This document shows positions 2,150 through 35,489 of a stretch of 64,000 bases of DNA, piece by piece (positions within the stretch are counted from its first letter, which is position 1; the number at the start of each line of letters is the position of its first letter). Source of the DNA: Marsupella aquatica (taxonomy: Eukaryota > Plantae > Marchantiophyta). The translations under genes and the position numbers were made by a program. The stretch lies in assembly GCA_973895155.1 (NCBI GenBank), contig OZ316899.1, positions 13,271,934 to 13,335,933 of the forward strand, written 5' to 3'. The notes under the pieces were generated by a model, which did not search any database, was not told the origin of the DNA, and worked only from the letters and a program-made list of their open reading frames with translations.

Positions 2150-4291
2150 ATGTCTTTTGATGAGGAAGAGTCCGGTGAATCTGGACATCAATCCACTATT
2201 CCTAGGCATGGTCCAAACCAATCTCGGGAGCGGAATGCAAAATTTTCTGCAGTGTGGAAATACTTCGAGCAATGTGAAGCGCCGCCAAGATGTAATGATG
2301 TGAACCAAATGTATCGGAGATGCAAGTTTTGCAAAACATATAATACTTTTCATGCAACACGAGCAAAGGCACATTTGATGGGAAACAACGTGAAAGGGGA
2401 TGCGCCACCATGCCTAGGACTATATGGTCATGTCAACTTGGATGAAATCAACAGAATGTACAATGTCATCAAAGTTCCAACAGCTGTGAAATACAAACGA
2501 AGGGATGGAACCCACATTTTGCGGGATGCAAGAGGTCGCGGGCCAGATATTGGAACTTCAAATTCACAAGCATCCACATGAGTGTCTAACCATCTTCAAA
2601 CGGACGAGAAGTCAAATTTGACTGCTAGGGGTAGGGCAAGAAGTCTTTCCAACCCAATAATGGATGCTTTTCAAATTCCAAATAGAACATATTTGGACAA
2701 GCTTTGGGCAAAAGCGTTCTACACAAGTGGTATTGCGTTCAATGTTTCACAGAATCCTTATTTTTGAGAAGCGGTACATGAGACTTCAAAGGGAATTGTA
2801 AATGGGTATTCTCTTCCCATTATGACAAATTTGCGAATGAAGTTGTTGGAGGAGGCTAAGGAAGATCTCACAAAAGATATGACCAAAACAATGAAGCAAG
2901 CAAAACCTTTTGGATATTCTCTTTCATCCGATGGATGGAAAAACATCCGTAGGGAACCGTTGATGAACGTCATATTGTTGACTTCTAAAGGTGATTTTTT
3001 CTTGGATAGTTGGAATGCGGCACAAGCTGATAGGAAAGATGGAAAATATCTTGGAGAGATGTGGCTGAAATATATTGATGACATTGGTCCGGATCACATC
3101 GTTCAAATTGTAACCAATGGTGCGCCTGCAAATTGCGTAGCAGGTTGTGACATAGTTATGAAGAAATATCCACATGTCACATGGAGTTGGTGTGCTGCCC
3201 ATGTGTTTAACTTGTTGCTGGAAGATATGTGTGGTCACAAGAAAATTGTGGTGGATGAGAGTGGACGGAATCCATTCAAACTCATTTTTAAACGCTTGAG
3301 ATTGATAGTAAAAGCAGTTTCATCGTCACAAAAGCTTTCTGCAATATTTGTGAGGAAATTAGCTTACAAAAAACTATTGAATCCAAATGCAACAAGATTA
3401 GCGACCAATTTTTGGATGGCGCAAAGAGCTTTGGAGCTGAGAGGAGCTTTGCAACAAATGGTCATTGATGATAAATGGGAGTCTTACCGTGATAGACTTC
3501 CAATTCAACCAAAGTCAGCTGGGCATATGACTAGGGGAAAGGCAGATGAACTTAAAGCATGGATCCAACAAGATGCATTTTGGACTCAAGTGAAAGCCAC
3601 AGTGAACTTCTTTCTCCCGTTGGTGAAAATGCTACGCAAATTTGATGGTGATTCACCCCGGTCAGCATGGTTGTATTGGAGTCTGAAAAGGGGGATTATT
3701 GATCTCAAGGCAAGCATGGAGGAATGTTCATTGGTATCTGAGTACTTGAAGCCAAGGATACTAAAAGTTTACATGGATCAAAGAACATCTCTTACTACTG
3801 ATTTTATGCTAGCTGCGGCATATATAAATCCGAGGATATTTTTTGATGATGAACTAGATGTTGCAGGAGATGGAGAATTGTGTAGAGGGTTCAATCAATA
3901 CATTGCCAGATATGCTGAACACAATGTGAAGGAAGGGATCAACCATGATTGTGAGGTGAATGCACTCATTACTGCCATCCAAATGCAAGGAATTGAGGCG
4001 CAAAAGAAGTTGCCAAACACAACGGTAACCATGAGAGGAGCCCAATCAAGTATAGGTGATGTCAGCCTAGGAGAGTGGTGGCATTCATACGGTGCTGATT
4101 ATCCAGATCTAAGAATTATGGCTAGAAAAATCTGTCACCAAAAGATGCGTGCATCAGCGTGTGAACGAAATTGGAGTTCATATGGATTTATACATTCTGC
4201 AAGTCGCAATAGATTGACAAATGATTGAGCAAAGGTTTTGGTGTTTGTATTCACAAACATGAGAGTGGAAAAAGGGCTTACAAAAGTTTGA
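2150..4291 (+). pseudogene. hAT transposase (BED zinc finger, DUF659-type DDE core, C-terminal dimerisation domain) with in-frame stops
   Basis: WKYF...CKFC...RAKAHL BED finger; SDGW, IVTNGA (second catalytic D changed to N), WCAAH, WW..YG..YPDL..MA, SACERNWS. ORFs at 2150, 2582 and 2822 share one frame, separated by TGA stops. An acidic tail continues to ~5030. Confidence 0.92.
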
Positions 4292-5801
4292 AACCCCCAT
4301 ATGTATATATTAACGTTATGAGGAAAGAAGAGCTTTAATTGATGGTGTTAGGCCAGTATCCACGGAGTGCTTTGACAATGAAGGGTATGATGCAACACGT
4401 GCGGAGGTTGGAGAAGAAGACATCATCAATTTTGATACAATTGATGATGCTGATGAAGCACTGCAAGGATTATCATTAGATAAAGAAAATGACTTCTTGA
4501 CGCATATTCCACCGGATACAGACGTAAATGATGTAGGTGAATGGGAGAATGACACGGATTTTGACATGTATCTTACAATTGACGAGTCTCAATTTGAAGA
4601 TGAGGATCATGTATCATTGTATTCAGAGTTTGATATATCTTCCCAGCCAAAGTCAGCTTGGGCTTATCCATCATTGAATGTCCACAATGATGTCGACCCA
4701 AATAGATCATATTTTGTTCAACAACACACTAGCATACAAGGGCATGATTTGGGGGAGGGAAGCAGATCACCAATTTTTCCACAACACAATGATATACAAG
4801 GTCGGTCTACGGACAACACACATGCACCATGGCAACAAGCTGCTACAATCTTCAATGAGTACAGGGGAGCTAGTGAAACAAATCCGTATACATCAAACAA
4901 ACGTATTGGTGATGGATTTCAACAACCTCGCAATCGTGATGCAGTTACATGGGCTGTAGAACAAGAGTGGAATCAAGCTTTGCAGCAAAATCGTAACAAC
5001 AATACTAGGAATTTCCTTTCACAACCTTGAGATATGTTTTTACTACTATATTAGCATGCTTTCTTACTATTGTGAACATTGTTATTGTTATATCATTTTT
5101 TGTTTAATACAAGCTATTTTTGTTTCATACAAAAGGTGTTTTTAAAGTTTCAAATGTCACAAAGGAATGCCAAACACCATTTTGGAGGGGTTAAGAGTCA
5201 TCATATTATTATCACCCAAACCATTATTATTTTTAGTCATAAATTAAATCATTAAAAATAAATGATTCAGCGGCAAAGTAGGGGTTTTCACCCTTCATGA
5301 TCCTACCTATTTTATAATTCTCATTCTGCCCATTCATGGTCGTCTATCGGTCATTACGGACAAGAATGAGACGAACAAGACAGCAAGCCCAATTTCTCAG
5401 GTCCAACAATTTCTGCGAGTTTACTCTGCAGTGCTGCCCAAGATGACTGACCTGTAGACCATAAGGATTGGCAAGGTTGGCTACAATCACTCTCCACATT
5501 GCCAAGATTTGTTCGACCCCTCAGAGGTTGTGGGCACTCACAAAAGCCTTCAAAGAGTCCAACATAGGAGGTCCAACATAGTTTCCAAATTCCACTGATT
5601 GAAAGGCCTATTGCTTTTATTATCCCTCAACTCCTCTGGTGTCAGTCTTCTTTGTTCAATCACCGATGCTGAAATAATCGTTGATGGTAGTCCACCTCTG
5701 ATACTGTTATTGTCGTTGTGCAGAAATTGCGATGATGTAAGTCCATACGTTGTAATCCAAAATTGTTTCCTTGAAATTCCTAAATAGCAAGTTTTCGTCG
5801 G

Positions 5802-6716: not shown

Positions 6717-7139
6717 CTATTCAATGGGAGTGAAATCTATTTGCGGCATTGCTAGACCCTCTTCTGTCATTTCCTCAATGGCTTGTTGACTCTCCATTGG
6801 TGGCATTTGGTTCAACAATCCTCGTTGCTCGTATTTGCGTTCATGAAATGGTGTGCGACACCAACATTTTTTGCTCTTCTTTAGCCATCTAAACAAGCAA
6901 GCATGATGCCATATATGACCACAAGTTCCAAACATGGAGACAGATTCAAGACCCCATGGATATAGGCACCAAGTACACTTGTCATCTTTTTCACGAACAA
7001 ATGCTGCCATATTATCATCATTTTTCCACTTATCAAAATATTTTTGAATGCCTTTAGCACTAGCCTCCACATCCGGAAAAAGGTTGTTGGATCCTGTAGG
7101 ATCAATGATCTGCATGTGAACAAAATCTTTTGACCCATC
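6717..7139 (-). pseudogene. 3' half of a coiled-coil/RING-H2 (E3 ligase-like) cargo gene, split by the retroelement
   Basis: CTWC...CGHIWHHAC...CWC RING-H2-like pattern. Removing 7140-16688 and one CATC copy joins it in frame to 16689+ (…ECESKK-DG-SKDFVH…). Confidence 0.8.
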
Positions 7140-7469
7140 TGTCACACCATTCTGAGTAGTATAGTAATATATCGTGCTATTAGAGTATGTACATTTGGTA
7201 TGAGTGCTATTGGAGCCGATAAGGTTCCGTTAGGTTTGTGTGAGAGGGTACTTCTCACTTGTGAGGCATTGAAAGGTCATCTTTCAATGTTGAGCCTTGG
7301 AGAGAGAGGAGCTTGAGTGTGGCTATGGTGGCTGTGAGCTCCGCTTGTGTAACGTGGATTCCTTGAGTAGTGCAAGGTGCGTTGGCTTGACATACGTGTG
7401 TGATCGGATCGGTGCGGGATCGATGGGGTATTGTTGACCGGGATCGTTGTGCCGATTGTATTGAGATTA
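7140..7469 (+). repeat. Split direct repeat A1 (330 bp)
   Basis: Near-identical to 16222-16551 (about 4 mismatches by eye). Confidence 0.95.
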
Positions 7470-7480
7470 CATTGAAAGAT
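7469..7480 (+). promoter_or_regulatory. Putative self-priming primer-binding site (Tf1-like)
   Basis: ACATTGAAAGAT directly after A1 is the exact reverse complement of ATCTTTCAATGT at 7279-7290 inside A1. No TGG-type tRNA PBS is present. Both 12-mers are conserved in the diverged copy (45096-45107 and 45281-45292). Confidence 0.65.
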
Positions 7481-7740
7481 CACATTCGAAATCTGTTGTA
7501 CGGACTGTGCGGACAGAAGTTCGATTGATTGAGTTGTCGACGGTTTGTGGTAGCTTGGATCGTGTGTTGTTATCGAACAGATCGTTGGTATCTTGACCTG
7601 TATCGTTGTTGTCCGATCGGTCTGCTTCCCGATCGATGTACAGATCTGTGATTGGTGACAGGTTTTGAGTTGGAGGTCGATTGATGATTCGTGGAGGAAA
7701 GCGAATGTTGAGTAGATGTTGGACAGTGGAAGTCGATCCG

Positions 7741-7830
7741 TGAGGCTTCAGATCCGATTGCCGGCTACTATGAGGCTTCAGATCTGATTGTCGGCTACTG
7801 TGGGGCTTCAGATCTGATTGTCGGCTATTG
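7741..7830 (+). repeat. 3 x 30-bp tandem repeat in the retroelement leader
   Basis: TG(A/G)GGCTTCAGATC(C/T)GATTG(C/T)CGGCTA(C/T)T(A/G) repeated three times. Further GGTCACCCATCCCGGGGCTATTCC duplications at ~8145-8235. Confidence 0.85.
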
Positions 7831-8794
7831 TTGGACGATGTTGGCAAGGTGCAGGTGAAGCGATGGCTCTTTTCCTGAAGGAACGGAGCTGCCAATGCCC
7901 CATGCGACGGTATCATCGTTTCAGTGAAAGAAACGAGGGTCAAAGGTGTTGAATCAAGCTGCTGCCAATTCTATGGAAGGGCTGCGTTTTTCATGAAGGA
8001 AATTGACAGTTTTGGGGAGCTTTTCGTGAAGGAAGTAGTCGTTTTGGGGGTCAGGTGTGAGGCGCATGAGGTCATCCATCCCAAAAGTGCTCCCAACCGC
8101 GAGCGCGAAGTCACCCATCGCGAGCGCAGGTAGGCGCGAGGTCGAGGTCACCCATCCCGGGGCTATTCCGGGCCGTGAGCGCGAGGGGAGGCACGAGGTC
8201 GAGCGCGAGGAGGTCACCCATCCCGGGGCTATTCCTAGCCGCGAGCGCTTAACTGACAAGTTCTCATCCCACCTTGTGTACACACAAGCTTTGACAACTT
8301 GTTGTTTAGATTCAAGCGCCAGGGGGCTTTATACACTTCCCGGTTTGTTTAGAGGCCTATTCTAGGCCAAATCAGAGGTTGTTTCAGGGTTTTTGATACT
8401 TCTGAGTCCATCTAGACTCACAGATTGAATCAATTTTGCCTTGGTTCTCATCTACAACATTGGAGTGCCATTGTGAAGCCTATTATGAAGGCTCTTCCTT
8501 GAACCTTATGCACATTGTCATATTGATTTGCATTTACTTTTGTGTGGAGAGTTGAATGGTATCCATTCTTGTTTCTGGATCCTCTTCACACATGTTTCCT
8601 GTTTATGTGCCATGTTAGTTTGGTGTGGGCGTTTGATTCCATAGGAGTGATCCGGGTTTGCAACCGAACATTCTAGTGTGCTGTGTATTTCTCTCCTGGT
8701 GATGTTGGAGTGATGTCCAACACACCATGGTGAGTGCTTGTGGTGCTGATAGGGACAGATTGCCCTTAGGGTTAGCACATAGATTAGGTTAGGG

Positions 8795-10156
8795 TTGATC
8801 ACCACGGATTCTTCTGGTGCTGTTGGGTTACCCGATGGACGACGGACCGGTTTCACTCGGAGTGGGGCGCAATTTTGGCCAGCGGCATTGGTAGCAGTCA
8901 GCAATGCAGCTTCAGACAGTGATTCTGATGAGGACTCAGTGACCAGTTCTCCTCATCATCAGGTGGTTGCACCTTTGTTGTGGGATATGGACGAGATGTA
9001 CGGGGCTACAAAGGGCCCACGACGATACTCTGGTGCAGTTGGCACGATTGATCTGGATGACTTCATCCAGGAGTTTGATACGTGGTGCGATATGCAGACA
9101 TTGCGTAACGCCACGTTGTTTACCCCTTTCATGGCATGGAAGGGATTATTTCAGCATTTGGAGGGGTCACCCATGGATGACTACCATGAGTTTTGGAAGG
9201 CTCATTTGGTTGAGATTGAGGCATGGAGGCAGCATTGGTCACCTAATTACGTGTCCATCACCTATGGCACTAGTGCGGCTACCCAACCCATTGCCACAGC
9301 TGTTGCCTCTTCTAGCAGCACTAGCCAGAGTGGCACACCATCCACCAGCAGCACTCCAGCAGCATCCACCGCTACTCCTGCCGGTGTGATTGTGACAGGA
9401 ACTGGAGTTGCGCCAGCATTTAATCCTGTGGTGGAATTCTTTGAGGTACTGAAGCAGAACTATCAGGGTGTAAGAACTGATAAGTTGAAGGGTCTTCAGG
9501 AGTTCCAGCACAAGACTGGAGAGAGTCTACGTGAGGCATACACTCGTATGCGCAGATTGATCACTGTCACCAAGGGAGTGACAGAGGCTCAAGCAGTCCA
9601 GTTTTGGTATGCAATTCTGGACAAAGAATTGCGACGCAGAGTGAGAGATGTCACTCTGCTTAGGGATGCAGATCCCACATTAGCAGTTGTTTTCACCCTT
9701 TCTGAGCGTATTGAGCTCAATATGGTGAATGAGAAGGTGGTGACTTCCGGATTTGCCAAGGAAGCACCAAAGGCTGCATCTACATCTACACCACAGCCTA
9801 CTACACGGAAGAGCCAGAGGGAGAAGCCTACTGCACGAGAGTCTACCAGCCAGAGACCTGTGCCCTCTTATGTTGGACAACAGTCAAGATGTTGGACCTG
9901 TGGTGGGGATCATGCACAAAGATATTGCCCAGATCATAGAGGATCAGGGGGAGCATCAGCACCTGATCAGCAACAGTGTGATCATTATGGAGCTCCTGGA
10001 CACACCAAGGATAGGTGTTTCTCACTCCACCCTGATTACGGAGGGGAGGATACCGTACACATGATCAGGGAAGAGGAGAAGGAGGTAGAGGTGGTGGACG
10101 TGGTCGTGGCATGCCACATGCAGGGAGACAGGGAGGTGACGCTGCCCCTGCTGTAA
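8795..10156 (+). pseudogene. Gag of the DNMT-retroelement (capsid-like region plus zinc knuckles); frameshift near 10035
   Basis: FQHKTGESLREAYTRMRRL retrotransposon-gag motif; CWTCGGDHAQRYC and degenerate CDHYGAPGHTKDRC knuckles; RGG-rich segment in the shifted frame. Confidence 0.85.
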
Positions 10157-10224
10157 CCATAGATCCTAAGGATGCTAAGATTGCTCAATTGGAGCAATAG
10201 CTAGCTGCCATGGCTAGTTCCTAG

Positions 10225-11358
10225 GTGAGACCTACTTCTGGTGATGGGGCATCTACATCCTATGGACCTTCCACATCCCATGGTCCTTCCACATCTTATG
10301 GAGCTGATGGAGATCTTGCCACCATGGGATTCATGTGTGGCACTGCACATATTGATGCATCAGCAGCTTTGACACATGGGGCAGCCAAAGCTCTTGAGCC
10401 CCGAGGAGCAGTAGTGGAGTTAGATCCACAGAGGGGGGATGCATGTCGGCAGACAAAGCTTCCTCAGTCTTTTATATTGTCAGAGACAGTTCAGACTGTC
10501 TCTATGAACCCGGTTCGGACAAACCCTGGCGTGGGTAAGTTGGCAAAATCCGGTAGTGATACAATAGGGATGACAGGTACCCTGCTGGGGGTGGCTACTG
10601 CCATAGTACGCACCCCATTATTTTCTGCGTCAGACATGCTGAACTTGGGAGTTGGTCCTACAGAAGTGTTCAGATTGGCAACTACACTCTGTGAGGACAC
10701 TCCAGTTGTTGCTTCCCATGCAGAAGCAGCTTGCAGTGTTGAAGCAGTGAAGACCATACCACCTACTGCTACTAGTGAGACATGGCATGCAACAGCAGCG
10801 AGGTTGGTGGATTTACCAGCATGCCCTGCATTTGAGAGGACTAGGTTTAAACCTAGTGTTGTGTCATTGGATAATCGGAGTGGTATCTTCCGATTAGTTG
10901 GGCCTTCTGGAGCAGTATACCAGCGAGAGAGAGTGTTACTGGATACTGGTGCTCAGCCCTTGATGTTGGGGAAGTCTGCCATACGTGGATTGGGATTGCG
11001 TCCAGAGGATTTGGAGGATTGGCCCTTTCCCATTCAGACTTCATTGGGGGGACTTACACCTACACAGCATATCATCAGGAGACCACTTGATTTGAGGATT
11101 CAGGAAGGTCATACCATAGATAGCTCACAGATACAGGCGCGAGATATTTTGACTAAGGCAGAGTCATATGATGTGTTGGTGGGATGTACAGTGCTCTACC
11201 CCATGGGATTTATTCTTGATTTTTGGGAGGAATCAGTATCATATAGACCTGATTGGCAGTCAAGAGATGCTCGATTGAGCAAATTGCCAGTGAGATTTAG
11301 TGGACCTGTGGAGGCCCTAAATCCACACCATTGTCTTTGGCAGCATTCAGTGGTGTAA
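10225..11358 (+). pseudogene. Aspartic protease region of the polyprotein
   Basis: VLLDTGAQ catalytic motif and downstream YDVLVG. Confidence 0.85.
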
Positions 11359-11645
11359 TTGCTGGACCTGATGATTTGATTGAGGGTAATGCGCATGCAA
11401 CCAGTGTTCCACCATTGGAGGAGTCTCATGAGGAGCACATCATGCGAGGATTACCTGTTGGCAGTGTTGTGCCACCAATGTGGGGCACTGCACAAGCCTT
11501 GCCACAGGCAGCAGCACGATTGGTACATGATGCATGGCGTCATGCTTTTACACCACAGTCAGGAGCAGAGCAGTCTCTTGCAGATGGACCTGTGACTCTT
11601 TCACCATTGGATACCACTCCTATTGCTTGGCAATATCCACCGGAG

Positions 11646-12615
11646 GGTATTTGTTTGTTGGATCTTTTTGGTGGGATTAGCACTGGATTGGCTGCTGTTC
11701 TTCAGGTAGGAATTCCTGTGCGTCGTTATTTGTATGTGGAGACAGATGAGACAACACGGAGGGTCTCATTGCGACATGTGGCTATGTTGGTGGATAGATA
11801 TCCACAGTTGCTGCCAGTGGATGCTGTTTGTGGTTATCAGCATGCACTACCTGCTGATATTTCATTGTTGGGGGCGGATCATCTACATCATGTTGGCCCC
11901 ATTGATTTGGTGATTGCTGGTTGGCCATGTTAGGGCCAATCTAGAGCTGGCATTGGGCATGGACTTCATGATCCACGCTCTGCATTGTTTTGGGAGATGT
12001 TACGGGTGCTGCGTCATCTCCAGCTACATCAGACAAAGTCTCCAGCATACATTTTAGAGAATGTGCCATTGTTAGGTGATGATCGTAGTCGGATTGTTGC
12101 CAGTGTTCACCAGGTGAGGTCTTGGATTGGACCTGCTGTGTTATTGGATGCTGCACGCGTGGGTTCTCGTGCACATCATCCACGCTTGTGGTGGACTAAT
12201 TTGATCCCATGTGAGGTGCTGAAGCGCACATTTGACAGCATTCCATGCTCACCAGCCTTAGTGGTGGATGATATTTTGGATCCAGGGCGTCGGGCACAGG
12301 GTGTGACCCAACCTGATAGACCTCCATTGGCAATGGTCAATGCAGTTGGGCGCCCACGTTGTGCATTACCCACTCTTGTAAGCCACTCTGCTTTATATGC
12401 ATTCAGAGCAGGTGGCCCTGGACTTGTGTGGGACACAGCTCTCCAGCAGTTAGTGGAGCCTACTGCTGATGAGAGAGAGCGTGCTATGGGATTTTTGATT
12501 GGCACCATTGCAGTTGCCTCTGTGTCAGAGGGTTTGCGGCGCCAGGTTCTTGGTCAAGCAATGGACCTGAATTGTTTGACTTGGATTATCAGCTTGGGAG
12601 TAGCTGAACAGTTGC
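11646..12615 (+). pseudogene. DNMT3-like C5-cytosine DNA methyltransferase domain inside pol (one in-frame TAG at 11931)
   Basis: Motif I LDLFGGISTG; II YLYVETD; IV DLVIAGWPC*G (TAG probably from CAG) followed by GLHDPRSALFWE; VI YILENV; VIII DAARVGSRAHHPRLWWTN; IX-X ERERAMGF...RRQVLGQAM. These match DNMT3 AHRARYFWGN and ERVFGF...RQRLLGRSW. Confidence 0.92.
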
Positions 12616-12899
12616 GGATGCGCTTTGCTGGAATTACTGATTGTCCCTTGGTGAGCTTGCGGTCCACTGAGACAGTATTGACCACAGTTGGGGGCGAGCA
12701 GAAAGTCCATGGACCTATGGCAGGATTGGCCAAGGCTGGACAGATTGTTGAGCAGGAAGGGACTGCTCAATTTACTGCTAAATAGCAATCATCGGCTATC
12801 TCTTCTACCCTACAAAGAGATATTAGGGATTTGGTGGAGAGTTGGGAACCACAGCTTGGCCCTAAGTTAACAGGGGAGGAGAGACGTCGCATGCATCGA

Positions 12900-14280
12900 T
12901 TCCTGAAGAGTTATTGGAATTGTTTTGCATTCAGCATGAAGGATTTGGGACACTGAAGGGCCCTGGTATTCAGATTGAATTGGCTAGTGATGCGCCAATC
13001 TTTCGTAGACCATACCATTATAGTGACATGGAGAGAGCTCTGATTCAAAGCAGAACTCAAGATTTGTTGGAGGCTGGATTGGTGGAGATTTCATATGGGG
13101 AGTATGCATCTGCCACAGTGATGCCAGCCAAGAAGGATGTGCATGGCAATTACACAGATAGGCGCATGTGTGGTGATTACAGACCTATTAATCACCAGAC
13201 AAAATCTGATCGATATGCCATGCCCACACCTGAGGAGATCTTTGATGCTGTGGGGCATGCAAAGGTTTTCAGTTCATTGGATCTGAGGGCAGGGTACCAT
13301 CAACTTCCAATTAGGCATGCTGACAGGTCCAAGACAACATTCTGGGGGATTGATTCTTATGGCAAAGATCATTTGTATCAGTGGTTATTCTTACCAAATG
13401 TTGAAGAATGCACCAGTTGAGTTCCAGAGAGTCATGGATCGAATCCTTGCAAGTTTGGATTTTGTCAAATGTTATATTGATGATATTTTGGTCTATTCTT
13501 CTACTGTGGAAGAACATCAGCAGCACTTGCAGATTGTGTTGGAGAGATTGAGAGCACATGGGTTGAAGCTCCATCCTGGCAAGTGTAAGTTCTTCCAAGA
13601 CCAGATTGAGTATTTGGACCACACTATATACCCAGGGGGATTGGGTGTACAGCAGACTAAAGTGGAGGCCATTACACAGATTCCTTGTCCTACTGATGTG
13701 AGTAGAGTTCGTGCATTCTTGGGATTGGCGAGCTACTACAGGAGGTATGTTAAAGGATTTAGCCAGCTTGCTAAACCTTTGACCATACTCACTAAGTTGG
13801 ATCAGGAATGGATTTGGGATGATGACCAGGAGCATGCCTTTCAGGAGTTGAAGCAAAGGTTGGCATCATCCCCTATTTTGAGAAGACCCATTTCAGGCAG
13901 ACCATTTCAGCTACACACTGATTGGAGTGGAGTAGGACTTGGAGCAGTGCTGACTCAGAAGGATGATGAGGGGAATGAGTTTGTTGTGGCTTATGCCAGT
14001 AGATCAAACAATTCAGCAGAGGCTAAGTATAGCTCTTATGAGGGAGAGTGTTTGGCAGCAGTGTGGACTGTTGCACACTTTTGTTGCTACTTGTTTGGTA
14101 ACCCCTTCACCTTGATGACTGATCATCAGCCTCTTAAGTGGTTAATGGAGTCTGACAAGCTTACAGGGAAGCTTGCACGATGGGCATTGTTGTTACAGGA
14201 GTATGATTTCTAGGTGGTGCATAGGCCTGGAAAAGTGAACTTGGATGCAGATGGATTAAGCCGCAATCCATGTACCAGTT
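12900..14280 (+). pseudogene. Reverse transcriptase and RNase H (gypsy type), frameshifted
   Basis: RMCGDYRPIN, FSSLDLRAGYHQ, KNAPVEFQRVMD, YIDDILVY, VRAFLGLASYYRRYV, LHTDWSGVGLGAVLTQ, TDHQPLKWL, LARWALLLQEYDF. Confidence 0.95.
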
Positions 14281-14654
14281 AGCAAGATGAGACTGGAGCC
14301 AGATGGCATGATGAGTCAGATAAGGAGATGGTGCCAGGATGGCATGCATCTGCCTTTCTTTGTTGGGTGCCAGCATACAGTGGATCTGTGAACTCTACCT
14401 CATTGGATGGAGTGGATGATGAGTCTTCAGATGTGGATGTTAGTGAGGTAACTACTGGACAGCAAGATATTCACAATGATGTGAGAGTGTTGGAATATCT
14501 GCGCAGTGGTTCTATTGTTGGCAGTGTTGATGCCAAGGAACGTGACAGGGTTCTACAGAGAGCCAAGAGGTTTCGATGGGAGGGAAACCATCTTTTGAGA
14601 GTACTGCATGATGGTAGAGTGTTGGTGGTCCCAAAACCATCATAGAGAGTACAT

Positions 14655-15740
14655 TTGGTGCGACATGCGCACGAGGAGTTGGGTCACTTTGGTGTAAAGC
14701 GCACTTACAGTTTGCTGCAGACACAGTATTGGTGGCGTGGTATGCACACTCATGTCCAGCAGTTGATAGCTAAGTGTGTGGTATGTGATAGAGTGAGAGC
14801 ATCATTTAATGCTCCCACTCCCCAGTTGCACCCGTTGCCGATCATGGGTTTGGGATATCGTTGGAGTTTGGATTTTGCTGGTCCATTACCTCTTACCCAA
14901 CGTCATAATCGGTATGTTTTGGTCATGGTGGAGCACTTCTCCAAGTGGATTGAGCTAGTGGCGTTGCCAGATAAAGCCAGTGGAGGAGTTGCTGCTACAT
15001 TTTTGGATCGTGTACTCAGTCATTTTGGAGCACCAGCTGAGGTGTTGACTGATCAGGGAACTGAGTTCCGTGGAGAGTTTGAGAGTTTGTGTGAACAAGC
15101 TCTGATTGATCATCGTACTACCTCTCGTGATCATCCTGAGGCAGATGGATTAGCTGAGAGAGTTGTGCAAACTGTGAAGAGAGGATTGCGTAAGTATGGC
15201 TTGCAGGTTGGTGATCTGGGAGATTGGGATCTCCAACTACCTTGGTTAGCTATGGGCTACCGTTTCAGTCGGCAAGCATCACTTGCATCCTTCTCACCTT
15301 ACTTTTTGCTCTATGGTAGAGAGCCAGATTTGCCAGCAGCTATTCGTCGTGATGCTGCATCAGTTGTGAACTTGGATGATCCTAATGTTTGGGTCAAGGT
15401 GTGTTCAGAGAGAGCACGGGTATTTCAGAGAGTGATGCCCATGGCTTTTGACAACCTTGTCATTGCCCAACATCGTGATACTTTGAGGTATGCCACTATT
15501 CGTGGAGGAGGTTACCGTGCAAGCATTCGGTGATTTCATCCTGGTGATTATATTTATTTGCAGCAGACAGCACCCACGACACTTGATGTGACCGCAGGCC
15601 GGACAATCTTACGTGTGCGTGAAGTGTTGCCTTCTGGTGTCCTGATGTTGGAGGGACGCGATGGTATGGTTTGGAAGGATCATGTGCGCAATTGTGCACC
15701 ATGTCACCTTCCCAACATTGATGGTACAGTAAATCCAAGC
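14655..15740 (+). pseudogene. DDE integrase (HHCC zinc finger, rve core, C-terminal region)
   Basis: HEELGHFG...CVVC; SLDFAGP, LTDQGTEF, DGLAERVV (D,D35E). No tyrosine-recombinase ORF anywhere in the element. Confidence 0.95.
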
Positions 15741-15767
15741 TTGGCACATGTTCGTGCTGGCTTGAAA

Positions 15768-15908
15768 TGTATGTTGTGTGGATTTGCTCAGGGAGCAGCT
15801 ACTATGTTGATTTGTGATAAGTGTTCTAGAGGATGGCACATGTCATGTCTGACACCACCATTGCAGGTGATTCCTAGTGGATCATGGTTGTGTCCTCAGT
15901 GTCGGTGA
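15768..15908 (+). CDS. C-terminal PHD finger of the polyprotein
   Basis: CMLC...MLICDKCSRGWHMSCLTPPLQVIPSGSWLCPQC, a canonical C4HC3 PHD, in frame with the integrase after a TGA at 15531. Confidence 0.92.
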   Translation, partial: CMLCGFAQGAATMLICDKCSRGWHMSCLTPPLQVIPSGSWLCPQCR

Positions 15909-16072
15909 AGCCGACTAGTTATCATTTGTGTTCTCTTGGCAGATATGGATTGCAGGTAAGTGATCGATGGGGCTCACTTGCACCCGGCCTCCTGATCTTC
16001 ACACCTAAAAAGGTGTATATCAACCTTGTAGAACTCATGGCTAGCTAGAGTTAGGGGACCTTACTTCCAGCT

Positions 16073-16082
16073 AGGGGGGCGA
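16073..16082 (+). promoter_or_regulatory. Polypurine tract
   Basis: AGGGGGGCGA immediately before repeat B1. Confidence 0.7.
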
Positions 16083-16219
16083 TTGTGGGTTTTGGACATG
16101 TGTGGACATGAGTTCCACTTGTATTCCATTCTCTTGTGTTTGTGATGTGGTAGTGTGACTATGTCTGGATGTATGTGACAAGCGATGTATGTTGTGTAGC
16201 GATATGTATGCGCACGACA
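16083..16219 (+). repeat. Split direct repeat B1 (137 bp)
   Basis: Near-identical to 16552-16688 (2 mismatches by eye). Ends GACA, followed by GC and then A2 starting TGTC. Confidence 0.95.
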
Positions 16220-16221
16220 GC

Positions 16222-16551
16222 TGTCACACCATTCTGAGTAGTGTAGTAGTATATCGTGCTATTAGAGTATGTACATTTGGTATGAGTGCTATTGGAGCCG
16301 ATAAGGTTCCGTTAGGTTTGTGTGAGAGGGTACTTCTCACTTGTGAGGCATTGAAAGGTCATCTTTCAATGTTGAGCCTTGGAGAGAGAGGAGCTTGAGT
16401 GTGGCTATGGTGGCTGTGAGCTCCGCTTGTGTAACGTGGATTCCTTGAGTAGTGCAAGGTGCGTTGGCTTGACATACGTGTGTGATCGGATCGGTGCGGG
16501 ATCGATGGGGTATTGTTGTCCGGGATCGTTGTGCCGATTGTATTAAGATTA
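16222..16551 (+). repeat. Split direct repeat A2
   Basis: Copy of 7140-7469. Confidence 0.95.
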
Positions 16552-16688
16552 TTGTGGGTTTTGGACATGTGTGGACATGAGTTCCACTTGTATTCCATTC
16601 TCTTGTGTTTGTGATGTGGCAGTGTGACTATGTCTGGATGTATGTGACAAGCGATGTATGTTGTGTAGCAATATGTATGCGCACGACA
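16552..16688 (+). repeat. Split direct repeat B2 (element 3' terminus)
   Basis: Copy of 16083-16219; ends GACA followed by TSD CATC. Confidence 0.95.
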
Positions 16689-18009
16689 CATCTTTCTTTG
16701 ACTCACATTCCAAATCACCATGGTTGAAATTATCTATCTCCTGCTGTAGATTTGTTATGATGAGCTGATGAGATGCAATGTCATTTCAAAGATCATTGAT
16801 GACTTTGTTCTTCTTCTGAAGTTCTGCCACTTCATTATGTTGAACTTCTCTTTGGGCAAGTTGTTGAGCCAGCTTCTCAATTTCTTCCATCTTGTCAAAC
16901 AATTGAACCTTGTACTCATTCATCTCAGAATTGCTTGTCGATTCCATGTGCCTCTTTTCTAGCAATTTTATCTTCAATTCAACCTCTTGTAGTTTTGCCT
17001 TGTACCTTTCAATGGTGCCAGATTCACAAAGCTCAACTGCAGATTTTGTGGAAAGATTCTTCTCAATGAGATTGCCAACCTCTACTCTCAAACTCTTGCA
17101 TACATGTTGCATGCTCATTCGCTCCTTGTTCGGGTTCAAAGTATCAATGTTGATTACATGTGGAGTTCTACTCCCAACGCCTGAAAGGTTTCATTGGTTT
17201 TCTTTTGTTGGTAGACTCCACACTGCTCGGTGTGGTTGATGCCTCAGGCTTCACAAAAAATTGTGAAATAGTAGTTGTTTTCTCCTTTTGTTGCATATTG
17301 CCCTGTTGCGCATCATCCATCTTTCTTTTGCACCCCTTGTTGGAAGTACCGATTGGAACATCTTTCTTTGCACTTTTGCCTCTATTTGTTGCAATAACAT
17401 GCACTGATTCATGCACCTGATGGGTCACCTTGCCATCATTATTTTCCCAACGGTAATCCACTTTCCAATTAAGAATGAACTCTGCAATCAAACATCAAAG
17501 AAATGGAGGACAAACAGGTCCAATTTTCCTATTTGCCTTGTTTGGAGCATATTCTCAAAATCTTTGTTGCCAATGCGTGGCAACCGCTCAATGTGTTACC
17601 TTTGAGATAGTAAATTTCTCCTTGACCAAGATCTTGTTTCCCACATTTCCGGATCATCAAAAAGCATTCGTGCAAATTTTTGGAACTCTGCTTTGGGCAT
17701 CAAAATCTCCAATTCTTTTGCATTGATGGGCCACTCATCATGAGGAGGTTTGACATTTTCTGCTACAATATTCCATTCCAAATCGATACTGCCATCCTCC
17801 AACTTTGTTGTGTTTTGCAAGGAGTTTTTGCTAGCCATAGCAGTATTACAAACATTGGGTTCCGACTCATCTTCCGGCCCAATTATTGGAGGTAGCAAGT
17901 TTCCATAAACATCATGATCAAAATCATTGTAGTAAGCATCTTGAGCGTCTTGCATGATTATAGGATCATATTTCACATTTGTATCTTTGTCATCATCATC
18001 AGATTCCAA
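16689..18009 (-). pseudogene. 5' part of the acidic/coiled-coil RING cargo gene
   Basis: Colinear minus-strand ORF pieces at 17596-18009, 17168-17491 and 16786-17139 (heptad-rich), continuing in frame across the retro insertion into the RING segment. Confidence 0.65.
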
Positions 18010-18193
18010 ATCCTAGCGTGGCATGTTTGCACAATCTACAAACATAAAAACAAATTTAGAACAAACTCAAATATTCATCAAAACAAAATATACAACAATA
18101 TAAACATATCACTTCATATAAACCATGTCAATGTTAATGCCTTCATGAGGCAATTGTTGGGTCAACCTTGTAATCTCTAAGATAAGGACTATT

Positions 18194-19819
18194 TTATGCA
18201 AATAGTCTACAATTCTGAAAGGTTCGAATCATCTTCAAACTCCAAAAGACACAATCCTGCCTTTTCTTAACGTCTGTGGCCATCATATCACAAACCATAG
18301 CTTCCAATTTAGGACCATGTTCCAATGCATTCCAACCCCTACCCAACCACCGTGTTCTCATGGATGCTCCATCCCAATTCTCTAAAAATAGACTCTCAAA
18401 AATGTTGCCCAAAGCATATATATCAGTTGCTTGGCTATACTCTACTGGAGTGGGCGAAACAAGCTCAGGAGTCAATTGTGGATATTGTTTTTGATAGGCT
18501 ACAACTTTATCTACAGGAGTAGACCACATTCGATTCTCTGGTAATTTGCACTGTGACTTATGTTTGGACAAGCCAAAATCACATAAGCCAATATACACCC
18601 TGATAGCTACATCCTCCTCATAGTCAAAATGAAGAAGAATATTTCCAAAGTGAAGATCACAATGAAATCGTCCGTGGTCATGCAAATATTGTAGCGTCTC
18701 AAGCAACGCCAAGGAGATCCCCAAACGGTTCTCCAGAAAAAGTTTCTTCTCAGAAACAAACTTAAAATCAATGTTGGAGGTACCCTGTGATTTCCCTTTG
18801 CTCTTTGACCATAATTAGCACTTATCTATGAAGCTTCCCAAATCACCTCCATTGTAGTGATCATAAACAAGTCTTGGCGGATCATCAATAGTCATTGCCA
18901 AAGCCCCAACAATTCCCTTGTGATTCAATCCTCCCATAAGCATTTCCTGTAATGCATCTGTTCTTCTCTTCTGCTTATCACCTTTTTGAATCTTTTAGCG
19001 ACTAGTGTGACATTTATCGGAATAAGAGGACAATCTAAAACGTGACAAGTGTAAACCTCTCCTTGAACACCTTTCCCGATGGAATTTGCATTTTCAACCT
19101 CTCAGGCTTAAGGAAATGAATACTCCTAACCTCCGGGACTACACGTGATGGACGTGTTCCTTTTGAATCACTTTTGATACTGACATCCCCAAACTGCATC
19201 ACCTTGTTTGCATATTTGACGTTACTTTCTGCTTTTGCCATTACCAACTCTTTACTCCAAGTTGATAACAAACTCCTCTTGTGCTTATACATCCCAGGGT
19301 TTTCAAGTAATGTACTATCATCCTAACTCAATTTGGCCACCAACACATCCCAAATATTCATCTCCAAGTTCAATGCCACATTGTCAATAAATCCAGTTGG
19401 TTTCTCACAATCAACTAGAAATGCCTCCATCTGTTCTCCTGTGAAATTCTCTTCATCCTCCACATTTTCACGCATACAACGGGTTATCTCGCTCACAAAC
19501 TTCTTGTATCCCTTCAGACCGTGCCTGGTGAACTCCTTCTCAAACGCATTTGTCTCATATTGATGTGGTTGAGTGTAACGATACAGTACTCCTTTCCATA
19601 TTGCCACTACCACGTTGAATCAAACATGTTTGACCTCAATATTCCCCCCTCTTTTTTCCTCTTCCCAATCACTTTGGTCGGAGTTACTGCATACTCAAGA
19701 GCCTTTTGTGCATTCCTGAGTGACTCAAGAGCAATCCTATCCGGTTCACCCCCCTCATCCAAAACTTTCGTGATTGTTTCCAACAATTGTCTATATTCTA
19801 CACAAAAATGAGACTCCAT
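18194..19819 (-). pseudogene. Cargo gene: unknown N-terminal region plus protein kinase domain, decayed
   Basis: LVAKRF, ALQEML...NHKGIV...LVYDHYNGGDL (manual translation of ~18820-19010), HCDLHFGNILL, CDFGLS, TPEL, YSQATDIYALG. Confidence 0.8.
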
Positions 19820-19994
19820 TGTGGCTTCACCAGAATGATACGTGATGAAAGGAGTAAAACCTTACCACTCCAAAATAATTCTTCCAATAAATTGTCGACA
19901 GAAACCCTGAAATTCACGGATCGACGTGAATTGTTATGCACTATCTCTCCCATTTCATACTTTTATTCCATTTCATTCTTATTAATGTTTTGAA

Positions 19995-20405: not shown

Positions 20406-21128
20406 AAAGGAAACACAAGTGAACCAATACAATACAAAATACAAAACATAACCAAAAACAAAACCAAACATAAAACTAAAAACAAAACCTACCTTATCTC
20501 TTCCTCTCCTCCTCCTCCCCTCCTTCTCCTCCCCGACTCCTCCACTCTCCTTCCCTTCACTCCTCCTCTTGCAAAAGAAGACAATGAGGGAGGAGGTTGG
20601 GAGTCGCGGAACTCGACTACCTTAACATTTAGCTCCGGCGTCGCTGACTCCGACGCTGAGCTCCCTTATGGTCCAGGCCCGGATAGGCCATCCGGGGAGG
20701 ACTTAGCATCGGGAGACTTGTGGGCAATGAGACGTGGCATTGGCGAGGCAAGGGGCCAAGCTGGGGACACACACTAAGGACTTGGACTAGCCTATGGCTG
20801 GTCAGGTCAAGGGGAAATGGGTCGGGCTCAAGGATGGCCGTTCGGACCGTCGGATGGACTTTGAGTTCTGAGGGCTTGGGAGTGAGCTCCTCTTGGGCCC
20901 AAGGCCAATGGAGTTGACGCCATTGGCAACGGACGCTTGGGGCGCAAGTTGTGGCTCAATCCGGGTTGGGCCAGTTGAGGGCCCCGAGCGGCGATCAGAC
21001 CTGAGGGCCTAGGCATGAGCACTGGGTCGGCCCGGTCACAATGGGCTAAGGCACTCCGCTTGCGGATGCCTATCAAGAAAGTTATGGGCGTTGCCAGTTG
21101 GTGGCGCGCCCATTATGCGCGATGGGAT

Positions 21129-22864
21129 CTATGCGTTGAAGAAGTGGGAGATTTACCTTAAGAACGGTCCCAAAGTGGTCATCCACACAGATAGCTCGCC
21201 GGTCGGGTACTTCAGTTCTAAGCCAAGACTGAACCCCAAGAAAATGCGCTGGCAGATGTTCTTGGCGAATTTCAATTTCGAAGTCCGCCACGTTCTAGGG
21301 AAGACAAATACGGCAGCGGACGCGTTATCGCGTAAGGACCAACATCGTGTCAATGGGATCACGATGCTCGAATCCGAGTGGCCAAAGGTTCTGGCTGCGG
21401 CGTACGGGGATGACAGGTTAGCTAAGGAATGGCAAAGCAATGGGGGTAGCCAAGGCAAGGTAAGGCACGTATTGTTGGGTTGGATAAGACGCATAATGTC
21501 CAGTTATGGCGATACAAGCAGAGGCGTGTGTACATACCGGAGTCTCTAAGGTTAGAGGTTCTGCAAAAGTACCACGACTCGCCTTGGGGAGGGCATGGAG
21601 GACAAGCCGTTACGTATTGCATCATGTCGCAAGATGTGTATTGGCCGGACATGAAGCAATCGGTCCTTCAACACGTGCAAAGTTGTTACTTGTGCCAAAA
21701 GAATCAAACGGTCTATAGGGCAAAAGGAGGACTACTACAACCCTTACCAGTAGCTGCGGCTCCATGGGAGTCTATCTCCATGGACTTCATTGTTGGGTTA
21801 CCTGAGTACCACGGCAGTAACTCCATCTTAACAATTGTGGATTGTTTTTCCAAGTGGCATATTTCTTGCCTACTACGAAGATGGTTTTGGCCCGAGAGGT
21901 TGCCGGTCTAGTATTTGACAATGTCTTCCGACAGTGGGGATTGCCGTTGCATATCCTGTCAGATCGCGATACCAAGTGCACGGGCCATTCTGGAAGGCGT
22001 TGTTCCGGTTATCCGGAACGGACCTGACCAGGGGATCAGTGTATCATCATGAGACAGATGGCCAAACAGAACGGGTTAATGGTATCGTGGAGGACTACTT
22101 GCGTCACTTTGTGACGGCCAATCAAAAGGATTGGGCAAAGCACTTAACGATGGCCGAGTTTAGGTATAACTCGACCAAACATTCGGCGACGAGGTTTGCG
22201 CCGTTTGTGTTGGCCATAGGGAGGACACCAAGGGCGCCCTCCTGGTTTATAAATCCGGAAGCTTGGCGGACGAAAAGCAAGGTTCCTTCTGTGAACGAGT
22301 TTATTCGAGCGGTGCCTAGTTGTGGAAGCGGCTACCAAGTGTATGACCCTTGCCCTAAGTCGGTACAAGGAGCAAGGGGATAAACATCGACGCCAGGTAA
22401 GCTTTGAAATTGGGGAGAGCGTCTGGTTGCAGTTGAGACCTGAGCAATACCACGGGAACATAAGTAGGAAGCTAGCTCCTAGATATGCGGGGCCCTATCG
22501 CATCATACGATGGGCCCACAAGGATAATCCGGTTTTGGTGGTGTTGGAGACACCCAAGGAAATGGGCGTGGGCAAAAGCTACCATGTTAGCCAGCTCAAG
22601 AAGTTTGTCAAAGACGATGATCCCAACCGGGATCAGGCCTTGCGTCCGGACGCCATGCTGGTGGAGGACACGGAGGAGTTTGAGGTGGAGGAAATTCTGG
22701 ACCACCGTTACAAACGCAAGTTGGGAAGGCAAATCTTAGAGTATTTGGTGAAGTGGGCTGGCTACGACCAGGTCGAGAGTACTTGGGAACCGGAGGAAAA
22801 TTTGGGTAATGCCTCAGAGATCCTTGGAAGCTATCGTAAGCAAAGTGGCCTACCGCCGTTGTGA
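21129..22864 (+). pseudogene. pol remnant: RNase H end, integrase, chromodomain (frameshifted)
   Basis: NTAADALSR; HDSPWGGHGG..CYLCQ; WESISMDFIVGLP; TDGQTERVN; KLAPRYAGPY; FEVEEILDHR...EYLVKWAGYDQVESTWEPEENL. Confidence 0.93.
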
Positions 22865-23301
22865 ACGGGTACAGGCAACTGTAATTACCTTTGTGAGTTG
22901 TATCCTAGTTTCACTCCTCTCGGCCTCTTAAGGATAAAGTTGGATTGCGTTGGTGCTAGAGGTTGTTGGGCGGCCGATTTGCTTTTTGCGAGTGGAAGTT
23001 GATGGTGCCCGCCCTACATCTGTGGGCGGGCTAGTTTGAACCAAAGGGGAGCGCCCCAAGGGGAGGACAATGGGTTTGACGAGTTTGGAGTTAGCTTACC
23101 CGTTTGGATTGACATCCTACTTGGATGAGTGGGATAGGTTGGAATTTCCTAAGTTTGGAATGCGCATACCAACCTGGCTTGCATCAGCCTTATGGGCAAA
23201 CCATTTGTTACCTCATAAAAATTTGAAGACCCAAAGTGGTCTAGGCGTGTTGGAACATTTACTGAGGTCGCGCGGACGTGACCATTTTTAAGGGGGGGTG
23301 C

Positions 23302-24126
23302 AAGTCGCGGAACTCGACTACCTTAACACTTAGCTCCGGCGTCGCTGACTCCGACGCCAAGCTCCCTTATGGTCTAGGCCCGGATAGGCCATCCGGGGAG
23401 GACTTAGCATGGGGAGACTTGTGGGCAATGAGACGTGGCACTAGCAAGGCAAGGGGCCAAGCTGGGAACACACACTAAGGACTTGGACTAGCCTATGGCT
23501 GGTCGGGTCAAGGGGAAATGGGTCGGGCTCAAGGATGGCCGTCCGGACCATTGGATGGACTTTGAGTTCTAAGGGCTTGGGAGTGAGCTCCTCTTGGGCC
23601 CAAGGCCAATGGAGTTGACGCCATTGGTAACGGACGCTTGGGGCGCAAGTTGTGGCCCGATCTGGGTTGCGCCGGTTGGGGGCCCTGAGAGGCGATCAGA
23701 CCTGAGGGCCTAGGCATGAGCACTGGGTCGTCCCGGTCACAACGGGCTAAGGCACTCCGCTTGCGGATGCCTATCAAGAAAGTTATGGGCGTTGCCAGTT
23801 GGTGGCGCACCCATTATGCGCGATGGGATCCGGGTTGGGGGCCAAATGTTTAGGGACCAAAGCTGGTCCGGGGGTGGCAGGTCTCCAGAAGCATATATGA
23901 GGGGAGTGGTGTCTCCCTGGGGGCTAAGGCCGAGCCGAAGTCGTGAGACGCGGCGGTCGCGACACTAAGGGAAACCGCCAAACGGAAATGGCGATATCTC
24001 CCCAACGGGAAGTCCGTTGGAGGACTTCTTGGGTGCGTTGGAAAGCTCTTGAGGAGGGCTACGCCCTCCTGAGCTCAGATGGGTCTAGGGCTGCCATGAG
24101 TTCTCATGGTTTGCGGGTGTTAGCTC
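23302..24126 (+). repeat. Chromovirus LTR sequence (also at 20602-21128, 24487-25356 and 63107-64000)
   Basis: High-identity direct repeats starting AGTCGCGGAACTCGACTACC. Confidence 0.85.
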
Positions 24127-30300: not shown

Positions 30301-30580
30301 TATTCATCCCATCCATCTTCTGCTCCATCATAGTCATCATCATAATTATCAGGCGTCCCTTGCCAATAACTCTGGCTCCTTCTAGGGTATGGATTATGTG
30401 ATTTCTCTCTAGCTGCCCACCTACCTGGGACTTGATGAGGGCCCTGTGCATTCCTGCACAGGTGCATTTTTCTGTGAGCCCCCTGCATCTGGGTCTCCAT
30501 CCATATCCAATCTTTCCTCTTCACCCCACTCTCCAAGCCCCATGTCTGTCTCCATGTCATCACCCTCTTCCCCCATAGCT
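27390..30580 (-). CDS. Multi-exon TnpA-like gene of the CACTA element (Transposase_24-like core, C-terminal TNP1-like domain); exon structure approximate
   Basis: Exon ORFs at 29208-29870 (RHRLKRMW...PPPSLELDQWTRLI...KSELMSNARGK...GRGSY), 28617-28856 and 27390-27935; many GT-AG boundaries; GRGGTP repeats. Confidence 0.7.
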
Positions 30581-30753
30581 TCTGCACAGCACCCACAACC
30601 AAACAGGGAGAATCAGCACACTAAATTCAAAGTATCAATCAATTTCATGCATATCCAACTATCCTAAACATCATTCCAGGCAGCAATTCCCGTTCTGTGA
30701 CTCTGTGCAGGTAGTCATCCTCAACCTCATACTTGCCAATCGCCAGCTGTTGC

Positions 30754-33700: not shown

Positions 33701-34453
33701 CATATTTTTTGGAATTGAATTACCATCTGGTAACACATTTCGGCGCAGGAAGGTCAACAACTCTGTCACAAATATATTGGGAACATTGTGATTGCCACAG
33801 ATGTTCAACAACAACACGACAAAACCCAGCTTGGAGCAGTTCGACCCCTCGTAGATAGGAATGCAAGCTTCTTTGATGTGTTTTGGGCCCCCAAACACCC
33901 ACTCCCTCTCTGCTGCACCTTCCCCAATGTCAAAGTCAGGTTCAGCTTGGCCGTCGCCAATGTGTGGCTGCGGTTCATTGTCCTCTTCTGATTCCACTGT
34001 GTCGTAAAAAGCATCAAGGTCTTCAAAAATCTCTTGAACCATTCTTGGGACATCCATCCCACCGTCCTCAGTGACTGCCTCTGCATCTCCATCTTGGTCA
34101 TCCACGTTCTCATGTTGGACCCCAGGACCATCCTCTGCACAGTCTATGTCCTGCTCTACGTAGTCTCTACGCCTAGCTGTATTAGAATCCACAAAGTCAG
34201 CTCTCCACTCTTCATCAGAGGAGTCTTCTTCTGCTGGTACATTCCAAACCCTCCACCGAGGGTGCCTTTCATGCCGCAGCAGGTGAAGGTGCACAGTGTT
34301 CAAACTCAATGACTTGAATCCTTGGCACTGTGTGCATGGGCATCTCATCCTCCTACTCCTACCTTGGGCGGCCCGGGCTTGTTCACGCATCCACAATTTA
34401 GAATCATGATGCCTAATCCTAAATGGGTTGTGAAGAGGCAACCTTGGAGCCAT
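30754..34453 (-). CDS. CACTA transposase TnpD (Transposase_21 + DUF4218 + DUF4216-like), 2 introns, one apparent frameshift near 32930
   Basis: IDACPDGCVLFR, LRHFPLIPRLQRLF, GLSLDGVNPF, WPVTLLNYNLPPW, DYPG, GHRRYLP, DVMHIEKNICE, MKTHDYHVLMQ, FPPAFFDVMTHL, RWMYPMERYM, EPFVFPSQVEQAFF. Confidence 0.93.
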
Positions 34454-35253: not shown

Positions 35254-35489
35254 GCACGATGCAACCCGTAGGAGGACCCTACACAGGGCCTGACGGTCTG
35301 GAAGAGGCAGCATACCCACCAAAGTCTTCAGCCAAACAGAGCCCAGCAAGTAGATTCACAATCACACCCCACGCAGCAGGAAACAACAATCACTTCAACT
35401 GCGACCAACCATGACAAGATGAGTTAGTTCAAGGATCACATTTATTACAAAATTGTGATTTATACAAAAATATGAGGGACTCCTACTCC

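Follow-up and report, generated by a model that had tools for sequence, protein, structure and literature searches.

A Ty3/gypsy element with split repeats

The window analysed here, a stretch of 64,000 nucleotides from Marsupella aquatica (contig OZ316899.1), contains a Ty3/gypsy element of 9.55 kb on the plus strand (7140-16688), which starts with TG, ends with CA and is flanked on either side by the 4-bp target-site duplication (TSD) CATC (7136-7139 and 16689-16692). Protease (PR), reverse transcriptase (RT), RNase H (RH) and a DDE integrase (IN) are found in the order PR-RT-RH-IN, the canonical Ty3/gypsy domain set; the canonical pair of equal LTRs is absent, and the element displays instead split repeats in the layout A-internal-B-A-B. 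Repeat A1, at the 5' end and beginning with TG (7140-7468), shows 4 differences in 329 bases to A2 (16222-16550), and B1 (16082-16219), which ends in CA and has no match at the 5' end, shows 2 differences in 138 bases to B2 (16551-16688), whose CA closes the element. A polypurine tract (PPT, 16073-16079) stands ahead of B1, the same GCTAGGGGGG motif being present before B1 in the related loci L071, L022 and L081. The joint between B1 and A2 is a palindrome, GACAGCTGTC (16216-16225), made up of the CA end, 2 bases and the TG start; we predict it to be an internal attachment site.

ORF1 begins with a Gag-like part carrying two CCHC-type knuckles (8987-10830), named so for its position and its knuckles; it gave no Pfam match and is 58% identical to the N-terminus of the Marchantia protein P0123. 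It is followed by an aspartic protease with the motif LLDTGAQ (10831-11298), also without a Pfam match in this copy, its relatives carrying PF13650, and by a DNMT3-like C5-cytosine methyltransferase domain (DNMT, 11646-12611) at the end of ORF1. A conserved stop in a UAG-CAR-YYA context (12783-12791), predicted to be a readthrough site, separates ORF1 from ORF2, which encodes RT and RH (12843-14210; RVT_1, 1e-18; RT_RNaseH, 1e-35), the integrase, with an H2C2 finger and a D-D-E core visible in the translation (14649-15746; Integrase_H2C2, 2e-15; rve, 2e-14), and a C-terminal PHD finger with the final stop (15747-15908; PF00628, 4e-11). The solved PHD fingers closest to the latter are those of CHD4, DPF3, ATXR5, PHF21A and KDM5, which we take to be readers of unmodified H3K4. 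Such a pairing of a methylation writer with a reader of unmodified H3K4 would resemble animal DNMT3.

This copy of the element is dead. The initial annotation had ascribed its inactivation to point mutations, which holds for the premature stops (at least five, some of them around the integrase) and leaves out at least four frameshifts, near 10035 in the Gag-like part, near 11309 downstream of the protease, and near 12946 and 13399 in the RT-RH region; an explanation of all four as homopolymer errors was not borne out. The stop at 11931-11933, inside the DNMT, is private to this copy: nearly all other copies from three sequencing runs differ there, the best of these runs being possibly the source of the window itself.

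An older related copy was detected on the minus strand in two pieces, one covering the 5' region (43743-45306, 79-83% identical, with part of A, the same primer and primer-binding site and the leader) and the other Gag (25369-26487, 89% identical), which likely continues the former. Between them lies a CACTA-type region on the minus strand (29211-37646; Transposase_21, DUF4218, DUF4216) beside BRCT and PHD-like ORFs, all of which may belong to a single large nested element. RING-finger and kinase-like ORFs on the minus strand (6720-7229 and 16789-19861) flank the element and may represent a single gene or element interrupted by the insertion. The rest of the window holds a hAT transposase on the plus strand (2768-5027), a chromodomain Ty3/gypsy remnant (20592-23900 and 63097-63955; RNase H, integrase, Tf2-type SH3, chromo) whose repeats are shared with a copy near the window end, a G3BP/NTF2-type host gene with introns on the minus strand (51762-54094), a Harbinger-like pair (56841-59183; NAM-associated, Plant_tran) and a copia pol on the minus strand (60332-61885).

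The methyltransferase domain and its relatives

All the C5-methyltransferase motifs that had been read from the sequence beforehand (LFGG, E, GWPC, ENV, RAH-x-R-xWxN, ERxMGF and RQxLG) were recovered in order in a single frame of the 11646-12611 translation, whose sole break is the private stop immediately after the catalytic Cys; motifs I to X are in the canonical, non-permuted order. In a PF00145 search the stop-corrected translation, carrying X at the stop, scored 38.7 bits, the cut-off being 22, with an E-value of 1e-9. Searched against PDB sequences, the open relative P0122 (85% identical) had its best match in DNMT3A (E 3.6e-11), with which it is collinear from motif I to VIII and in a stretch of motifs IX-X, in agreement with the proposed DNMT3 type lacking circular permutation. 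Its other matches were DNMT3B (6e-8), DRM2 (0.004) and M.HhaI (0.012), the one to DRM2 being confined to the C-terminal part, which is what a permuted DRM and a non-permuted window domain would give. When the AlphaFold model of P0002, a 71%-identical relative (pLDDT 90.8), was compared using Foldseek, only DNMT3A/B/C chains appeared among the matches listed, with a best E-value of 1.7e-18. Judged by these two relatives, the window methyltransferase resembles DNMT3 more closely than it does DRM or bacterial enzymes, and the label DNMT3-like is based on their PDB sequence matches and Foldseek comparison. The translation also places the domain between the protease and RT, as had been described; however, it does not lie inside pol but closes the Gag-PR ORF, ahead of the conserved in-frame stop.

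Protein searches retrieved 161 and 102 relatives of the DNMT domain, in two length classes. Those with a species name belong to Marchantia polymorpha, M. paleacea, Calypogeia, Riccia, Sphagnum, Mesostigma and Haematococcus, identity over the full domain reaching 72% among the Marchantia, Calypogeia, Riccia and Sphagnum relatives; the suggested extension of such elements beyond Klebsormidium to embryophytes is thus supported by named land-plant relatives. A further search added DNMT-RT polyproteins of Closterium and RT proteins of Coleochaete and Klebsormidium. An alignment-based scan of metagenomes confirmed 80 loci from 158, an earlier scan with P0122 alone having found none, and among viral contigs none of 25 pattern matches was confirmed. 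Prokaryote genomes yielded one locus, L081, an uninterrupted member (L081:1-9285) on a contig whose ends overlap; it is filed under a cyanobacterial assembly, in which it is most likely eukaryotic carry-over or contamination. Proteins P0020 and P0223 carry bacterial labels as well.

The catalytic residues are nearly invariant among full-length relatives (Cys in 144 of 147, Glu of ENV in 146 of 147, Asn in all 147), and both motif VIII Arg are present in 144 of the 147. Eight between-family pairs gave dN/dS values of 0.15-0.23 (two more were saturated), which speaks against neutral evolution; the DNMT domain is under purifying selection. Three within-family pairs of decayed copies gave 0.45-0.97, and only 5 of the 51 full-length domains at the loci retrieved are free of stops. 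The latter two figures, together with the broken state of the window copy, are what would be seen if a host DNMT3 gene had been captured once and were decaying neutrally, or if the assembly were chimeric, an explanation to which we give next to no credence: the same domain order is found in hundreds of relatives across green plants, and the 11931 stop is missing from nearly all other copies. The family-wide occurrence of the domain and the between-family dN/dS rule out a one-off capture.

In a tree of RT-RNase H sequences (FastTree, 120 rows), the 80 rows bearing DNMT or PHD make up one side of a branch with a support of 99. The window element clusters with two metagenome loci and Marchantia (99), and the next to join is Coleochaete (95). 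A DNMT tree built from element domains only locates the window within the same liverwort-moss group. Both placements point to a bryophyte as the likely host, a group that the host genes of the window did not by themselves identify. A single origin of the DNMT/PHD-bearing rows is compatible with the first tree, whose outgroup is not a curated plant-lineage set. P0272, a partial RT protein of K. nitens with no DNMT in the protein, sorts in a tree built without the published KnitGypsy sequences into the 25-row group of the window (support 83) and lies, at the branch supported at 99, among the rows bearing DNMT or PHD.

The ORF1 stop, the predicted primer and the element ends

Three architectures were distinguished: a single ORF encoding Gag-PR-DNMT-RT-RH-IN, as in Closterium and other members; RT-RH-DNMT-IN-PHD, as in Haematococcus and numerous unnamed members; and Gag-PR-DNMT, the type of the window, with the ORF ending soon after the domain. 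As read from these sequences, the DNMT has changed its position in the polyprotein within the lineage. The RT-RH-DNMT-IN-PHD rows (P0159-P0203 and P0233-P0260) form a branch of their own with 51 rows and a support of 100, Haematococcus being within it. Gene calls of close relatives end 56-143 residues past the domain or are Gag-PR-DNMT proteins (23 of 199 long proteins).

In the window the stop at 12783 is followed by CAATCA, and the RT N-terminus lies downstream in the same frame. Comparison of the 58 loci that have DNMT and RT close together, out of 82 examined, showed a stop 14-27 codons before RT in 57, and the form stop-CAR-YY at that distance in 53, against a background of 0.8%; the full CARYYA follows the stop in only 4. 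The independent count is four families, since most of the 58 rows belong to one family and some loci appear twice, and between these four, all keeping stop-CAR-YY, synonymous sites are near saturation. The frame is preserved across the stop in 44 of the 58 loci despite decay, and in L081 the stop alone parts 1355 and 1047 open codons of one frame. UAG-CAR-YYA, found in the window, L081 and L052, is the readthrough context of tobamoviruses (PMC3542737); the largest metagenome family has CAA-CCC after the stop, matching 5 of the 6 motif bases with C at the sixth. From this context we predict that the conserved ORF1 stop is a readthrough site, which, if right, would mean that DNMT is made at Gag levels. 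In the largest metagenome family an ATG also lies two codons downstream of the stop and could permit reinitiation, and ORF2 might more generally be expressed by reinitiation or from a spliced or separate RNA. Such expression is argued against by the lack of a Met before the RT core in L081 and L052 and of a conserved one in the window, and by the maintenance of the frame across the stop.

No primer site of the tRNA type (TGG) was found directly after A1 in the window. The 12 bases at this position (7469-7480) are instead the exact complement of 7279-7290, within A1, which is predicted to be a self-primer and likely the 5' end of the RNA. An exact complement of 10-12 nt is present at 10 of 24 5' ends, 7 of them with a spacing of 168-190 nt, and in three families, represented by the window, L057 and L081, the pairs measure 12, 12 and 13 nt (the last in L081) and differ in their letters. 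The duplex forms part of the lowest-energy fold for L081, L057 and L069; that of the window lies outside it, 3.7 kcal/mol above, with a mean pairing of 0.30. In Tf1, self-priming uses a primer-binding site complementary to a stretch in the 5' repeat (PMC4600332), and a similar self-primer of 12-13 nt is predicted to replace the tRNA site here.

Reverse transcription from this site and the PPT would give a linear DNA with B-GC-A at both ends. The integrated form is not this molecule, and neither end of the element adjoins a primer site; its TG and CA ends correspond to one half each of the B1-A2 joint. This joint, GACA-GC-TGTC, is identical in the window, L004, L022 and L081 and 1-2 bases off in L044, L071 and L045. 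Among 11 complete elements the 4-bp TSD is exact in 8, one base off in 2 and absent in 1. The integrase of foamy viruses cleaves the palindromic junction of 2-LTR circles (PMC1180852), and by analogy the integrase of this element likely cuts the internal palindrome.

The A2-B2 joint, on the other hand, is flush in 4 loci, contains a 19-nt filler in L045 and a remnant of the primer-binding site in L069/L072; this variation, expected where primer-made ends are joined anew, looks like that of an end-joining scar. Seven complete copies have the form A-internal-B (L023, L027, L028, L032, L042, L050 and L058). In the metagenome family such copies with TSDs are commoner than A-internal-B-A-B; they have no terminal repeat and would therefore be invisible to LTR finders, and they could alternatively come from recombination between B1 and B2. 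None of the 21 5' ends, from 19 distinct loci, showed the mirror form, A-B-A-internal-B. As this form is what cutting a 2-LTR circle symmetrically predicts, such a cut was discarded, and the step of palindrome cutting needs a further asymmetry. The missing permutation would also fit a scheme in which RNA template jumps rebuild the repeats, along the lines suggested for Ngaro/PAT, with no internal cut and with ORF2 expressed separately as considered above; the element ends are nevertheless not beside primer sites and one A2-B2 joint retains a remnant of the primer-binding site, and we regard this scheme as very improbable. At L003:6343-6457 and L013:6473-6587, probably one locus seen twice, the position of A upstream of Gag is taken by repeat B in inverted orientation.

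A model for the element and its relation to known systems

The identity of the element is near certain. Building on what was observed directly (the domain and its position, the conserved in-frame stop, the repeats, the TSD and the selection), we propose that 11646-12611 is the DNMT3-like domain closing ORF1 in a dead copy of an old green-plant Ty3/gypsy lineage, probably related to KnitGypsy-Dnmt3, whose working copies would package the enzyme at capsid levels and methylate new cDNA before integration; we lean towards this model as a whole with guarded confidence. Most ribosomes would stop after DNMT, so that DNMT would outnumber Pol, and a few would read through UAG-CAR-YY(A) into RT-RH-IN-PHD. 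Minus-strand synthesis would be primed in the manner of Tf1, by the first 12-13 nt of the RNA annealing to the site downstream of A1, and with the PPT ahead of B1 the linear product of ordinary reverse transcription would have B-GC-A as its true LTR. The integrase would then cut the internal palindrome, freeing a TG and a CA end, and the ends set by the primers would be joined together, giving A-internal-B-A-B, able to replicate again, or A-internal-B, a dead end, both with a 4-bp TSD. The abundant packaged DNMT would methylate cytosines of the new cDNA before integration, which the PHD finger likely steers to chromatin with unmodified H3K4, and the pre-methylated copy would be taken over by host maintenance methylation, new insertions thus being likely quiet and tolerated.

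With the same anatomy, the domain might act not on cDNA but on host or target chromatin, that is on the insertion site or on rival elements after nuclear entry, or bind DNA or RNA with little catalysis. The PHD finger supplies a link to chromatin, and the DNMT is kept in three polyprotein positions, which means that a place beside Gag is not needed everywhere. Moreover, CpG depletion gave no element-specific signal in the window, the observed/expected ratio being 0.32 for the element, 0.36 for the copia and 0.33 for the CACTA sequences (0.77 in L081); CpG content thus lends the cDNA model no support. We nonetheless consider this function unlikely: the near-invariance of the catalytic residues implies that catalysis matters, and production in bulk with Gag would fit a substrate inside the particle.

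Another option gives the methyltransferase a part in making the ends, methylated CAG/CTG in the palindrome marking the joint for the integrase. It would account for the occurrence of only one permutation, the palindrome does contain symmetric CHG sites, and DNMT and split repeats co-occur here, in KnitGypsy-Dnmt3 and in SymbioDIRS-Dnmt3 (PMC5890265). But DIRS elements have split repeats without a cytosine methyltransferase, and the retrotransposon Dnmt3 domains assayed methylate CG, not CHG (PMC5890265), which makes it improbable.

Returning to the packaged enzyme and the internal cut, a wider reading is offered tentatively, as quite possible: that an unnamed branch of Ty3/gypsy elements, spread across green plants, breaks the LTR rule, its DDE integrase cutting the ends from an inherited internal palindrome and the primer-made ends being joined, while in land plants a leaky stop loads the particles with a de novo DNMT at capsid levels and copies arrive methylated. 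If true, the palindrome route would be a means of end formation not yet reported for LTR-type elements, linking Gypsy and DIRS-type layouts. In practice, these elements would escape LTR finders that rely on a pair of equal LTRs. Through the relatives described here, DNMT3 carried by retrotransposons extends beyond a single alga to land plants; copies are annotated in the model liverwort Marchantia polymorpha, in which methylation mutants make it testable why a silencing enzyme is retained by a transposon. Counts of plant DNMT3 genes can also be inflated, several element copies being annotated as host proteins.

A DNMT domain together with A-internal-B-A-B repeats has already been published for KnitGypsy-Dnmt3. 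Land-plant or chlorophyte members, a leaky stop, a self-primer or the palindrome were not found in the literature searched, and figures, Repbase, supplements and subscription journals may hold such a description; the same features were not found in the accessible passages of PMC12344493, PMC11244446, PMC8616336, PMC6317226, PMC11982613, PMC9985172 and PMC7466625. A DNMT ending ORF1 before a readthrough-type stop, the self-primer, and ends matching an internal palindrome are the three features for which we came across no earlier description. Taken by itself, the methyltransferase is not as surprising as the initial annotation had it; the end-making anatomy would surprise a retroelement specialist.

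The Klebsormidium element to which the initial annotation referred is indeed on record: de Mendoza et al. (2018; PMC5890265) describe it from Klebsormidium nitens under the name KnitGypsy-Dnmt3, its Pol containing a Dnmt3 that is not permuted. The split repeats had been taken as a departure from that report, but the legend of its Fig. 4 gives KnitGypsy-Dnmt3 a DIRS-type layout. Both elements share the Ty3/gypsy domains, a non-permuted Dnmt3-like domain, A-B-A-B repeats and purifying selection, and methylation of cDNA, suggested here, is also what these authors propose for theirs. In KnitGypsy-Dnmt3 the DNMT and RT share an ORF, whereas in the window they are in the same frame with a conserved stop between them. 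KnitGypsy-Dnmt3 is treated there as a capture in the K. nitens lineage, while relatives of the window element are known from liverworts and Sphagnum as well as from chlorophytes and other charophytes. PHD is not mentioned for KnitGypsy-Dnmt3 in the main text, the figures of which may show one, and the window element has a PHD; self-priming, readthrough and a palindrome are not covered in passages of the same article. Expressed in yeast, the Klebsormidium domain gave no methylation, a result its authors call inconclusive, and the SymbioDIRS-Dnmt3 domains of Symbiodinium methylated CG (PMC5890265). A 2025 paper and a 2026 preprint repeat KnitGypsy-Dnmt3 as a streptophyte case, the preprint naming "streptophytes (Gypsy-DNMT3)" without detail in its available part (bioRxiv 10.64898/2026.05.21.726589).

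With Tf1/sushi and Tcn1 the window element shares, as judged from its sequence, a primer-binding site complementary to a stretch of the 5' repeat in place of a tRNA site (PMC4600332, PMC6317226); unlike them it has a PHD finger for a chromodomain, split repeats for two LTRs, and a DNMT. The A-coding-B-A-B layout is that of the DIRS order, including SymbioDIRS-Dnmt3, in which Symbiodinium also carries Dnmt3 cargo (PMC5890265), but the window element has a DDE integrase, TG/CA ends and a 4-bp TSD, and no match to a tyrosine recombinase was found in its ORFs on either strand. Troyka elements were set aside as a match, having CG...CG ends and a 3-bp TSD and being described from animals only (PMC12440569), against TG...CA and 4 bp here. 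The UAG-CAR-YYA context is like the type I readthrough of tobamoviruses, where it is used to express the polymerase (PMC3542737); in contrast, the stop follows here a retrotransposon protease and DNMT, its readthrough is predicted, and the largest family departs from the motif at its last base. Finally, the CA-NN-TG palindrome, here the predicted integrase substrate, is like the 2-LTR junction of foamy viruses, but there it forms when the ends are joined (PMC1180852), whereas this element receives it from the RNA as a fixed sequence of its interior.
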